From IMG/VR virus record IMGVR_UViG_3300033074_002003: DNA of 20,273 nucleotides. One strand, written 5' to 3'. Below, piece after piece: positions 2,390 through 9,622 of the stretch. The notes under the pieces were generated by a model. The model saw nothing but the letters and a program-made list of their open reading frames with translations. It was not told the DNA's origin and made no database searches. Source of the DNA: a virus. Positions within the stretch are counted from its first letter, which is position 1. The number at the start of each line of letters is the position of its first letter. A program made the position numbers and the translations under genes.

Positions 2390-2464
2390 GGGGATGTGGT
2401 CAAACGGCGAAGGCGTCTCCCTCAGAAGGAGAAGATTTTGTGGGTTCGAATCCCACCTTCCCCA
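2390..2464 (+). tRNA. atypical tRNA-like gene, anticodon CAG (Leu-type anticodon but short variable region), 75 nt
   Basis: T-arm GTGGG-TTCGAAT-CCCAC is perfect. Acceptor GGGGATG/CTTCCCC has one T:T mismatch. Discriminator A. Anticodon stem TCTCC/GGAGA with loop CTCAGAA. 3-bp D-stem with a 10-nt loop. The variable region is 7 nt. Confidence 0.4.
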
Positions 2465-2527
2465 CAGCGCACTGGGACCCGTAAAAAGCGAAAACAAGCG
2501 CAAAGAACGGGTTCCGGTGTGTCACAT

Positions 2528-2605
2528 GCGTCGGTGGACAAATTTCGGTAAAGTCGCTGCGTCGAGATCGCAGAGATTGTGTGGGTTCGAATCCCACCCG
2601 ACGCA
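2528..2605 (+). tRNA. atypical tRNA-like gene, anticodon GAG (Leu-type), 78 nt; a paralog of 2390..2464
   Basis: Same T-arm GTGGG-TTCGAAT-CCCAC and the same 7-nt variable AGATTGT. Acceptor GCGTCGG/CCGACGC is perfect. Discriminator A. Anticodon stem CTGCG/CGCAG with loop TCGAGAT, where C33 is non-canonical. 3-bp D-stem with a 13-nt loop. Confidence 0.4.
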
Positions 2606-3823: not shown

Positions 3824-3894
3824 GCGCGCGTGGTGTAATGGTAGCACTTAAGAACGCCATTCTTAGGGTGAGGGTTCGAATCCCTCCGCGCGCT
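3824..3894 (+). tRNA. tRNA-Gly(GCC)-like, 71 nt
   Basis: Acceptor GCGCGCG/CGCGCGC. D-arm GTGTAATGGTAGCAC. Anticodon stem TAAGA/TCTTA with loop ACGCCAT, which has a non-canonical A32 and C33. T-arm GAGGG-TTCGAAT-CCCTC. Confidence 0.55.
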
Positions 3895-4009
3895 CAGGGG
3901 GCAAGTGTGAGAGCCCCTGCGAGCGATTAGATGCCGAAGCGATGTACTGGAAACGAGCGGGAGCGTCGTGACGGCGTAACCCCTCGCTGGTCGTCGCAAT
4001 CTCACAGAC

Positions 4010-4083: not shown

Positions 4084-4165
4084 GCAAGTGTGGTGGAATG
4101 GCAGACACTGCGATCTCAAACATCGCTGTCCAGAGGACGTGAGGGTTCGAATCCCTCCTCTTGCA
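4084..4165 (+). tRNA. tRNA-Leu(CAA), type II, 82 nt
   Basis: Acceptor GCAAGTG/CTCTTGC has one mismatch. 3-bp D-stem. Anticodon stem GCGAT/ATCGC with loop CTCAAAC. Variable arm GTCC-AGA-GGAC. T-arm GAGGG-TTCGAAT-CCCTC. Discriminator A. Confidence 0.7.
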
Positions 4166-4394: not shown

Positions 4395-5048
4395 ATGGAC
4401 AACACGAAACGCTACATCTACTTCATTGTCAATCGCATAAACTCTAAACGATACGTTGGACAAACACGTGATTATGTAAAAAGATCTAAGCAACATTTTT
4501 CTGAGGGCAAGAAGGGTAGAAAACGACATCCACTCTACGATTCCATGTTTTCACACGGGATCGAAAATTTCGAATTTGTTGTGATACAAGAGTGTTGCGA
4601 AAATGACGTTGATGAGTGTGAGATAGCGTGGATTAAAGCATTGTGCACTCGTGATAGAAGATTTGGATACAATCTTACGCCGGGTGGTAGTGCAATGTCG
4701 AGTTGTGTCTATGAGAAAATTTCAAAATCAATGTCTGGTAGACATTTCACACCCGAACACAAGGCAAAAATAGCTCAAGCGTTGAGAGGACAAAAGAGAC
4801 CTCCTTTGAAAGTTGAGCACGTTGAAAAGATAAGAAAATTCAACTTAGAGTCGCCGCCCTTTGCGGGTAAAACTCATACTGTTGAAACGCGTGAGAAAAT
4901 ACGTTGCGCAAATTCCAAATTGACGCGTGAAATCGTGAAAGTGATTCGCGAAGAATTCAATAATGGAACATCTCGTAAAGAGCTTGCACAAAAATATCAG
5001 GTTTCGTATAGTGCAATCAAGAATATCGTTGCAGGTAGACGCTGGTGA
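4395..5048 (+). CDS. GIY-YIG homing endonuclease (I-TevI-like, with NUMOD-type repeats)
   Basis: N-terminal RYIYFIVNRINSKRYVGQT with the GIY-YIG signature, Arg (CTRDRRFGYN) and Glu. C-terminal repeated SGRHFTPEHKAKIAQA and GKTHTVETREKIR NUMOD3-like motifs and an HTH-like tail. AT-rich island directly after the tRNA array. Confidence 0.75.
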   Translation: MDNTKRYIYFIVNRINSKRYVGQTRDYVKRSKQHFSEGKKGRKRHPLYDSMFSHGIENFEFVVIQECCENDVDECEIAWIKALCTRDRRFGYNLTPGGSAMSSCVYEKISKSMSGRHFTPEHKAKIAQALRGQKRPPLKVEHVEKIRKFNLESPPFAGKTHTVETREKIRCANSKLTREIVKVIREEFNNGTSRKELAQKYQVSYSAIKNIVAGRRW

Positions 5049-6216: not shown

Positions 6217-6296
6217 CCCGTCGTCGTCCAATGGAAGGGCACCGGTCTACGAAACCGGGCAGAGATGCAATGCAGGTTCGAGTCCTGCCGGCGGGG
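6217..6296 (+). tRNA. tRNA-Arg(ACG) with an unusually long (13-nt) variable region, 80 nt
   Basis: Acceptor CCCGTCG/CGGCGGG with one G-U pair. D-stem GTCC/GGGC. Anticodon stem CCGGT/ACCGG with loop CTACGAA. Extra GCA-GAGA-TGC mini-arm before the T-arm GCAGG-TTCGAGT-CCTGC. Confidence 0.5.
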
Positions 6297-6462
6297 CAAT
6301 AGGCGACAGTCGTCGTCCACACCGAAGACTATGACTCGGACGTGTGAGCCGCTCGGAAGCCCGTGCAGAGGGAAGAGAGCGGAAAGTGCCGAGGGCTGTC
6401 GCACTAGCTCGGAGCACCGAAGACAAGTGCTGTAAGTGGGTTGCTCCGCGATGCGGCACTCT

Positions 6463-8284: not shown

Positions 8285-8524
8285 ATGAACTGTTCGGTGG
8301 CGCTACGCAACACAATGGCAAACATCGCGCTCGATGCGTTCCCGTTCGCCACGGGCGCGTGGACAGACGGCGATCGCGTGGTCGTGTACGTTAGCGACGA
8401 CCACGACCTCACCGACCAGAGGTCAGGCGACGCGACGTTCAGGTTTCCGGAGTTCGACGGCGAGTCAGTGAGAGAAATTTCGAGGCCCGTCACCATCGAA
8501 TTCGTGAGACACTCGTTCACGTAG
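8285..8524 (+). CDS. hypothetical protein (79 aa)
   Basis: GAGAGGACACGACA precedes the ATG. High GC3. Confidence 0.45.
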   Translation: MNCSVALRNTMANIALDAFPFATGAWTDGDRVVVYVSDDHDLTDQRSGDATFRFPEFDGESVREISRPVTIEFVRHSFT

Positions 8525-8584
8525 CTTAATTGGTAAAGCACCGCATTTTGGCGGAGGCTGTGAGTTCGAATCTCATCGTGAACA
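8515..8584 (+). pseudogene. degenerate tRNA-like gene (70 nt) with a 4-bp anticodon stem and a 6-nt loop
   Basis: Acceptor GTTCACG/CGTGAAC is perfect. D-stem GCTT/AAGC. T-arm GTGAG-TTCGAAT-CTCAT. The anticodon arm is CCGC-ATTTTG-GCGG, which is 3 nt too short. Overlaps the stop of the 8285..8524 CDS. Confidence 0.35.
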
Positions 8585-8586
8585 CA

Positions 8587-8895: not shown

Positions 8896-8982
8896 GGGAG
8901 ATTAGTTCAGAGGAAGAACGCGTCCCCTACAAGGACGATGCCCTTAGGGTTTACACAGGTTCGAATCCTGTATCTCCTACCA
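8896..8982 (+). tRNA. orphan type-II tRNA with anticodon loop CCTACAA (TAC by standard numbering, C33) and an encoded 3' CCA; isotype uncertain
   Basis: Acceptor GGGAGAT/ATCTCCT. D-stem GTTC/GAAC. Anticodon stem CGTCC/GGACG is perfect. 17-nt variable arm GCCC-TTA-GGGT. T-arm ACAGG-TTCGAAT-CCTGT. Discriminator A, then CCA. Confidence 0.45.
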
Positions 8983-9019: not shown

Positions 9020-9622
9020 ATGAAATGTGAACGCTGTCAAGTTGAACACAGTGGGACGTATGGTTCGGGAAGATTTTGCACAGTCAAGTGTGCGAGATCT
9101 TTTTCAACAGCGTCTACTTCTGAAAAACGTTCAGAGATCAACAAACGAGTATCAGCGACACTAACGCAACCGCCAAAAGTAGCGACCTGTTGCATGTGTA
9201 ACACGCGGTATGAAACGCGACATCAGCGTTCTACATGTTGTAGTAAAGAGTGTCGAAAAGCTCGTAAAGCTCAAGTACAACACAACGTAACTAGAGAACA
9301 AAGAATCGAATTGGGCATCAAGAGTTCCTTTGGCAAATATGTTCGAAATCCGACAAGTTTGTATGATTTGAGCAACCGAACAATCAGTAAGATTCTTACA
9401 AGACTCGGAATCGGGTGTTCTTTGTGTGGTTGGTCTGCTGGAAAGTGTGACATTCATCACATTCGTGGTCGGAAAATTGAAGAAGCAGACAGACACGAAA
9501 ATTTGGCCTACGTGTGTCCAAATTGTCACAGGCTGATTCACAACAAGAAAATCAAGATTGACAGTCTTGTATCACTTCAAGATCAGATTGGTGATCGCTG
9601 GAAAGAGCTCTATTACGGTTAA
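9020..9622 (+). CDS. HNH homing endonuclease, a paralog of 361..1080
   Basis: N-terminal MKCERCQVEHSGTYGSGRFCTVKCARSFS. HNH motif CDIHHIRGRKIEEADRHENLAYVCPNCHRLIHN. AT-rich. Confidence 0.75.
   Translation: MKCERCQVEHSGTYGSGRFCTVKCARSFSTASTSEKRSEINKRVSATLTQPPKVATCCMCNTRYETRHQRSTCCSKECRKARKAQVQHNVTREQRIELGIKSSFGKYVRNPTSLYDLSNRTISKILTRLGIGCSLCGWSAGKCDIHHIRGRKIEEADRHENLAYVCPNCHRLIHNKKIKIDSLVSLQDQIGDRWKELYYG

Follow-up and report, generated by a model that had tools for sequence, protein, structure and literature searches.

Two short-armed tRNA-Leu genes in a phage tRNA array are probably working leucine decoders of a widespread phage lineage

In an uncultured phage genome, two neighbouring genes on the + strand, tRNA-Leu(CAG) (2390-2464) and tRNA-Leu(GAG) (2528-2605), carry leucine anticodons but lack the long variable arm. 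Judged from their sequences and those of their relatives, both are very likely working elongator tRNA-Leu isoacceptors of a widespread phage lineage in which the variable stem-loop has collapsed, to 7 nt in these two genes and to 5 nt in most relatives. Short-armed tRNA-Leu is common in phages, and the pair is an ordinary member of a group that has been little discussed.

The genes lie in a stretch of 20,273 nt (IMG/VR record IMGVR_UViG_3300033074_002003), here called the window, which is dominated by a + strand tRNA array. ARAGORN finds 26 tRNA genes in it, and 22 score above threshold with Rfam. Between the tRNAs there are small ORFs and ORFs for HNH and GIY-YIG homing endonucleases, a thioredoxin, a sigma-70 factor, an ATP-dependent DNA ligase and a deacetylase-like protein. 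The homing-endonuclease ORFs (HNH, GIY-YIG/NUMOD3; 256-1080, 4395-5048 and 9020-9622, + strand), which sit inside the tRNA array and recall SegB in the tRNA cluster of phage T4, are AT-richer (about 45-48% GC vs 56-62%) and have a leucine codon preference of their own. When GenBank phages were searched with the whole window for near-identical DNA, the sole match was a 55-nt tRNA-Thr and thus no close cultured relative; with the ligase and the sigma factor as protein queries, identity reached at most 30-44%. Overall, the proteins of this phage show no relationship to those of any cultured phage beyond about 30-40% identity. By exact-protein look-ups the same phage population was found in JGI and Logan contigs with 99-100% identity. 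The region of the tRNA-Leu pair is conserved to the same degree (99-100%) across 7 contigs from several samples, and apart from four variable positions these contigs are too close for comparative analysis. The upstream ORF (1700-2353), used as a query for related loci, retrieved one distant locus, which has no tRNA-Leu.

Both genes are recognised by the Rfam model RF00005, tRNA-Leu(CAG) with 57.3 bits (E 3e-10) and tRNA-Leu(GAG) with 52.6 bits (E 6e-9), where the gathering score is 29; they take ranks 12 and 15 among the 22 Rfam tRNA matches of the window. ARAGORN calls the same anticodons, CAG and GAG, within 2390-2465 and 2528-2606. Up to A73 the genes measure 75 nt and 78 nt, and the anticodons occupy 2423-2425 and 2564-2566, respectively. 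The T arm, GTGGG-TTCGAAT-CCCAC (2440-2456 and 2581-2597), is identical in both. It is preceded by variable loops of 7 nt that contain no helix, AGATTTT at 2433-2439 in the CAG gene and AGATTGT at 2574-2580 in the GAG gene. The D stem has 3 bp in both (G10-C25, N11-N24, C12-G23) with A13 and A22 not pairing, the D loops comprise 10 and 13 nt, and the discriminator is A73 in both; a 3' CCA is encoded in neither. The features listed in the original prediction (identical T arm, 7-nt loops, 3-bp D stem, large D loops, A73) can all be read in the sequence, and the missing long arm that it had pointed out for this pair with leucine anticodons is borne out as well.

Less straightforward is the assignment to a structural class. 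The original prediction spoke of a class-I architecture, a term that is slightly loose: with 7 nt the loop falls between class I (4-5 nt) and class II (>10 nt), and the D arm corresponds to that of class II tRNA-Leu. Indeed both genes display A73, the 3-bp D stem, unpaired 13/22, A15-U48 and a leucine anticodon, all traits of class II tRNA-Leu, whereas the class II variable arm itself (>10 nt, stem-loop) is absent from both. With a leucine anticodon and a loop of at most 8 nt without a variable stem, both belong to the short-variable-loop type. Folds of the 8/4 or 9/3 kind, as in allo-tRNAs or tRNA-Sec, were considered and dismissed, as the acceptor stem (7 bp) and the T stem (5 bp) are standard in both genes.

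Both genes have a canonical cloverleaf. tRNA-Leu(CAG) has U8, A14, G18G19, the T loop UUCGAAU and a 7-nt anticodon loop with U33. In tRNA-Leu(GAG) all of these are kept except for the near-universal U33, which is replaced by C33 (C2563, loop UCGAGAU), so that the usual U-turn nucleotide is missing. This counts against a working decoder. So does A37 in tRNA-Leu(CAG), since G37 is usual in bacterial tRNA-Leu that reads CUN codons. tRNA-Leu(CAG) also has a U6/U67 mismatch, which it shares with its closest homologue, L190. A population variant, L277, adds a second mismatch, U5/U68, and the same double U/U recurs in L183, an independent member of the clade described below.

Comparison of the two paralogs shows that their helices are maintained. 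Their overall identity is 66.7%; unpaired positions match in 28 of 35 cases and paired positions in 22 of 40. Of the 20 base pairs, nine have both partners exchanged, eight of these without loss of pairing in either gene, and one-sided differences are absent. The original prediction was to be abandoned if covariance models scored both genes below the tRNA threshold and if the paralogs showed no compensatory changes. Both scores are well above the threshold and compensatory changes are present, between the paralogs as well as across the large family, and therefore it stands at the level of sequence. Among the matches listed, 26 unique sequences form a clade with 7-nt loops of the type AGAUUNU, namely the two window genes and 24 others. 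On the cloverleaf, 98.3% of the cells of this clade are standard pairs, and two-sided changes affect 12 of the 20 pairs (121 cells). These values were not reached in any of 500 shuffles, and controls with slid partners were 37-51% paired. The T stem is invariant in the clade, but this is forced by the search pattern. Minimum-energy folds of the bare transcripts, in contrast, miss the cloverleaf (z -1.5 and -2.3), which was counted against the two genes. Such failures are common for tRNAs. As the single-sequence folds did not show the cloverleaf, we relied on covariation.

The covariation extends to the tertiary core. In 202 parsed short tRNA-Leu sequences among the matches listed, positions 15 and 48 are A15-U48 in 191, G15-C48 in 7, A15-C48 in 2 and G15-U48 in none. 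Fisher's test gives p 1.6e-11, a value that overstates the independence of the observations because the sequences are related.

How widespread this architecture is was assessed by pattern scans, which were seeded with one T arm, and the resulting prevalence figures are thus lower bounds. An exact-pattern scan of IMG/VR (variable loop plus T arm) found 16 contigs. Complete genes were present in 15 of the 16, all of them tRNA-Leu of 75-79 nt, with the anticodons UAG, CAG, CAA and AAG. A looser viral scan gave at least 120 contigs and at least 109 unique short tRNA-Leu sequences. A metagenome scan without any condition on the anticodon again gave at least 120 contigs; among the matches listed, 103 of 114 tRNAs with the signature had leucine anticodons, nearly all of these being 72-77 nt long, and most matches were located in dense arrays with up to 35 tRNAs in 6.5 kb. 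In 185,579 species genomes the signature matched at 15 places only, and the leucine matches were mostly in dense arrays on metagenome-assembled contigs. One species-genome match, L031 (453-531), is a tRNA-Leu(UAA) on a 127-kb contig of an Actinopolymorphaceae MAG; it shares the T arm and has a variable loop of 8 nt. No other tRNA occurs in 8 kb of this long contig, and the gene may therefore be a cellular, actinobacterial one rather than part of a phage array.

Pooling the scans gave at least 236 unique short-loop tRNA-Leu sequences, with A73 in 234 of 236. Among the matches listed, the 202 parsed relatives have loops of 5 nt (161), 7 nt (26), 6 nt (11), 4 nt (3) and 8 nt (1). The AGAUUNU clade is defined by the D arm UGGNNAAA..GG.AAAGNNG, the T arm GUGGGUUCGA[A/G]UCCCAC, A73 and a leucine anticodon, a signature into which the window pair fits. 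Its alignment has 37 invariant columns, both window genes align readily, and the anticodons CAG, GAG, UAG, AAG and CAA occur in it. L178 and L192, close homologues of tRNA-Leu(GAG), share its D arm and variable loop.

Codon usage points in the same direction. In the 18 GC-rich core ORFs of the window, leucine is encoded by CUC (55%), CUG (25%), CUU (12%), UUG (6%), CUA (1.7%) and UUA (0%). The array contains a third leucine isoacceptor, tRNA-Leu(CAA) (4084-4165, + strand; called by ARAGORN, Rfam 49.6 bits), which in alignment with the two short genes shows a normal long (class II) variable arm. Together the GAG, CAG and CAA genes cover 98% of the leucine codons of the core ORFs, with 67% served by tRNA-Leu(GAG), and the two leucine codons for which the array has no matching gene hardly occur there. 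This coverage leads us to read both short genes as working decoders. They would be transcribed together with the + strand array of tRNAs and ORFs and be excised by RNase P and 3' processing, possibly with help from the flanking hairpins, and CCA would be added post-transcriptionally. Host LeuRS would then leucylate both through A73 and the tertiary core (U8-A14, A15-U48, G18G19) and not through the anticodon or the variable arm. During infection, tRNA-Leu(CAG) would read CUG, and tRNA-Leu(GAG) would read CUC and CUU.

Each of the two genes is preceded by a stable hairpin on the + strand. Directly past the stop codon of ORF 1700-2353 there is a perfect GC-rich hairpin of 10 bp (2362-2385; inverted repeat I17, TGTCGCGCTC/GAGCGCGACA), followed by AGTTT. 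It folds with -19.3 kcal/mol (z -3.75) and stops 4 nt before tRNA-Leu(CAG) begins; a role in termination or in processing is conceivable. A second hairpin, of 16 bp, takes up the spacer between tRNA-Leu(CAG) and tRNA-Leu(GAG) (2467-2522; -32.3 kcal/mol, z -7.6), and none of 200 shuffles folded as well. Of its variants in the phage population, those at 2469 and 2478 preserve the pairing, and one pair is lost through the change at 2510. This hairpin may be a processing site of the precursor. A promoter and terminator scan near the genes yielded nothing usable; the lone local 'terminator' was the anticodon arm of tRNA-Leu(CAG).

That a bacterial LeuRS can accept such tRNAs is known from Streptomyces coelicolor, whose enzyme leucylates a natural short-loop tRNA-Leu and also charges a long-arm tRNA-Leu from which five pairs of the variable stem were removed, leaving 7 nt; nucleotide 48 was essential in that system (PMC6614811). 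For the Aquifex system, tRNA-Leu without the variable arm mainly showed a lower affinity (PMC2377443). E. coli LeuRS, however, did not charge the short-loop tRNA-Leu of Streptomyces (PMC6614811), and therefore acceptance by the LeuRS of an arbitrary host is not guaranteed.

The C33 of tRNA-Leu(GAG) is a recurrent feature. Among the matches listed, C33 was found in 9 of 20 unique short tRNA-Leu(GAG) sequences with different bodies (the window gene at 2563, and L144, L128, L185, L186, L194, L197, L199 and L215), in 0 of 13 long-arm tRNA-Leu(GAG) and in 1 of 216 other short tRNA-Leu. For phage tRNA-Leu(GAG) as a whole this amounts, among the matches listed, to 9 of 33 vs about 3-4% overall: of the 1748 unique tRNAs contained in the fetched arrays, some 3-4% lacked U33, and nearly all of those had C33. 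Within the window, 4 of 24 tRNAs with a parsed 7-nt anticodon loop do not have U33, namely tRNA-Gln(UUG) (165-236) with A33 and tRNA-Gly(GCC) (3824-3895), tRNA-Val(UAC) (8896-8982) and tRNA-Leu(GAG) with C33. Yeast tRNA-Leu(GAG) has a natural C33 at little functional cost (bioRxiv 10.64898/2026.02.20.707122). Because C33 recurs in phage tRNA-Leu(GAG) and the yeast precedent works, it need not point to a pseudogene.

Some other + strand genes of the array are unusual as well. tRNA-Val(UAC) (8896-8982; Rfam 57.2 bits) has a long class II-like variable arm, the loop CCUACAA with its C33, a G1/U72 pair and an encoded CCA. It is the reverse oddity to the short tRNA-Leu genes, and a similar 86-nt 'Val(UAC)' gene is present at L007. 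In the 80-nt tRNA-Arg(ACG) (6217-6297; Rfam 49.8 bits) the variable region is enlarged to about 12 nt with a short stem. Two tRNA-like genes, at 90-164 and 8515-8585, have 6-nt anticodon loops and are reported by ARAGORN as 'tRNA-???'; the second scores 60.1 bits with Rfam. They could be pseudogenes or unusual decoders.

According to the original prediction, decoys, tRNA-derived regulatory RNAs or pseudogenes were equally likely as short-arm tRNA-Leu. This balance does not hold, because covariation, the conserved tertiary pairs, the link to leucine anticodons and the match with codon usage favour working decoders. That one or both genes are decaying copies which arose by duplication within the array and dropped out of translation appears very improbable. 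The U6/U67 mismatch with the U5/U68 added in L277, the C33, the lack of an encoded CCA and the presence of genes with 6-nt anticodon loops in the same window would fit such decay. Yet the U/U mismatch in the CAG gene and C33 in the GAG gene are the only defects in otherwise intact tRNAs, the same oddities recur in independent relatives, and all stem differences between the paralogs are two-sided. Both Rfam scores lie within the normal range of the window, the conservation across the 7 contigs is nearly complete, and 67% of the leucine codons of the core ORFs are of the kind that tRNA-Leu(GAG) serves. It is highly implausible that the pair act as decoys resembling tRNAs or as regulatory RNAs, such as sponges for a host enzyme, and never enter the ribosome. 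Their unusual architecture and the tight placement between stable hairpins and ORFs are compatible with it, but a decoy has no need for six leucine anticodons on one body, for A73 or for the tertiary pair 15-48, and the codon-usage match would then be a coincidence. Charging with another amino acid, by which CUN codons would be recoded, is scarcely credible. Bacterial LeuRS ignores the anticodon, and an altered body could in principle switch identity; the nearest neighbours of the D arm also include Glu, Asp and Arg tRNAs besides Leu, and these tRNAs of phage arrays have similar D arms. However, A73 and the A15-U48 core of tRNA-Leu are kept, and there is neither a G3-U70 pair (alanine identity) nor a long arm (serine identity). 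By the established identity rules, anticodon-dependent aminoacyl-tRNA synthetases would reject CAG and GAG, and the ORFs of the window give recognisable Pfam domains under the standard code.

A different kind of proposal adds to the reading as working decoders and does not replace it: the main value of the two tRNA-Leu could be resistance to host tRNA-cleaving enzymes that deplete long-arm tRNA-Leu, for which tRNAs without the variable arm (and with C33 in the GAG gene) would be poor substrates. We regard this as possible but unlikely. In its favour, phage tRNAs have been proposed to evade anticodon nucleases through changes in the anticodon loop (PMC10264068), and the mycobacterial toxin VapC52, a contributor to phage defence, cleaves tRNA-Ser(GGA) in its long variable loop (PMC13273310). 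Consistent with it are also the frequent non-U33 loops in the window, the enrichment of C33 in phage tRNA-Leu(GAG) and the occurrence of short tRNA-Leu genes almost entirely in arrays of the phage type. On the other hand, the same array keeps the long-arm tRNA-Leu(CAA) and four long-arm tRNA-Ser genes, the literature searched described no nuclease that specifically targets the tRNA-Leu variable arm, and the paper on bacterial Schlafen proteins showed no specificity for long-arm tRNAs. The more general form, in which collapse of the variable arm is a recurrent adaptation of phages that, together with non-U33 loops, serves the escape from host enzymes recognising long-arm tRNAs, is decidedly doubtful.

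For the window itself, the outcome is a tidied annotation: two ordinary, probably functional leucine decoders and no new class of RNA. Textbooks present short-loop tRNA-Leu as a rarity in bacteria. The 2019 Streptomyces study also treats it as such (PMC6614811), and in the literature searched, Streptomyces coelicolor is the only bacterium for which a type I tRNA-Leu is named (PMC6614811). Despite this supposed rarity, short tRNA-Leu genes occur by the hundred in the tRNA arrays of phages, across many environments and many host phyla. Searches of the open literature for type I or class I tRNA-Leu of phages brought up the Streptomyces paper alone and no paper that discusses the phage copies. The general reading of arm collapse as a phage adaptation would imply that short-loop tRNA-Leu is charged by the LeuRS of many bacterial phyla, including E. 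coli and Salmonella in the case of T5-like phages, which would contradict the published view that Streptomyces LeuRS alone does so. Charging of the phage copies would mean that tolerance of LeuRS for the loss of the arm is general. If the short forms were favoured through resistance to host tRNases, a structural route would be added to the idea of phage tRNAs as a counter-defence. The points of wider interest are the prevalence in phages, the charging in hosts of the E. coli type and the link between C33 and GAG.

As to known systems, the possibility raised in the original prediction that these are novel short-arm tRNAs has to be given up: the architecture is widespread in phage arrays, is annotated as tRNA-Leu in hundreds of GenBank phages and has a bacterial precedent that was studied biochemically (PMC6614811). 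BLAST against GenBank phages showed that short tRNA-Leu genes have already been deposited and are annotated as plain tRNA-Leu, their carriers being phages of Prochlorococcus, Enterococcus, Streptomyces, Mycobacterium, Rhodococcus, Erwinia, Bacillus, Lactobacillus, Rhizobium and others. The closest cultured match is a tRNA-Leu(CAG) of the Tunturiibacter phage Tunturi_5, 79 nt long with CCA and unannotated in its record. Its loop, AGAUUCU, is of the 7-nt type of the window, and over 64 nt it matches the CAG gene with 88% identity. T5-like Tequintavirus phages of Salmonella and E. coli have a short tRNA-Leu(UAA) in about 335 GenBank records, and the Gordonia phages GodonK, with a tRNA-Leu(CAA), and BrutonGaster are carriers as well. 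The cultured-phage genes and those of the window have in common the T arm GUGGGUUCGA[A/G]UCCCAC, A73, the 3-bp D stem, leucine anticodons and the setting in a tRNA array. The T5-like and GodonK genes differ in their 5-nt loops (GUUUU and AUGUU) and in their anticodons, and several encode CCA.

S. cerevisiae tRNA-Leu(GAG) combines the GAG anticodon with C33 and decodes CUC; as a eukaryotic tRNA it is a parallel to the window gene and not a homologue. In mitochondrial tRNAs, D and T loops are often reduced or atypical, whereas those of the window genes are fully canonical bacterial loops. The type I tRNA-Leu of animal mitochondria resembles the window genes in its short variable loop and in A73, but a mitochondrial LeuRS of its own charges it and the S. 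coelicolor enzyme does not (PMC6614811). The type I tRNA-Leu(CAA) of S. coelicolor (Fan et al. 2019, PMC6614811; compared by description) resembles the window pair in its short variable loop and coexists with long-arm isoacceptors and a single LeuRS. Unlike the window genes it is chromosomal and has a 5-nt loop and the anticodon CAA, and A73 is no identity element there (PMC6614811); the loop sequence, ACAGC, occurs in short tRNA-Leu of phages as well. The class II tRNA-Leu(UAA) of phage T4 has A73 and, in its D arm (UGGUCAAAUUGGUAAAGGCA) and T arm (GUGGGUUCGAGUCCCAC), is nearly identical to the window genes. It possesses a variable arm of 15 nt with a 4-bp stem, where the window genes have 7 unpaired nucleotides instead. 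As the D and T arms of the clade are almost those of T4 tRNA-Leu, the simplest history is a collapse of the variable stem-loop within a phage tRNA-Leu lineage.
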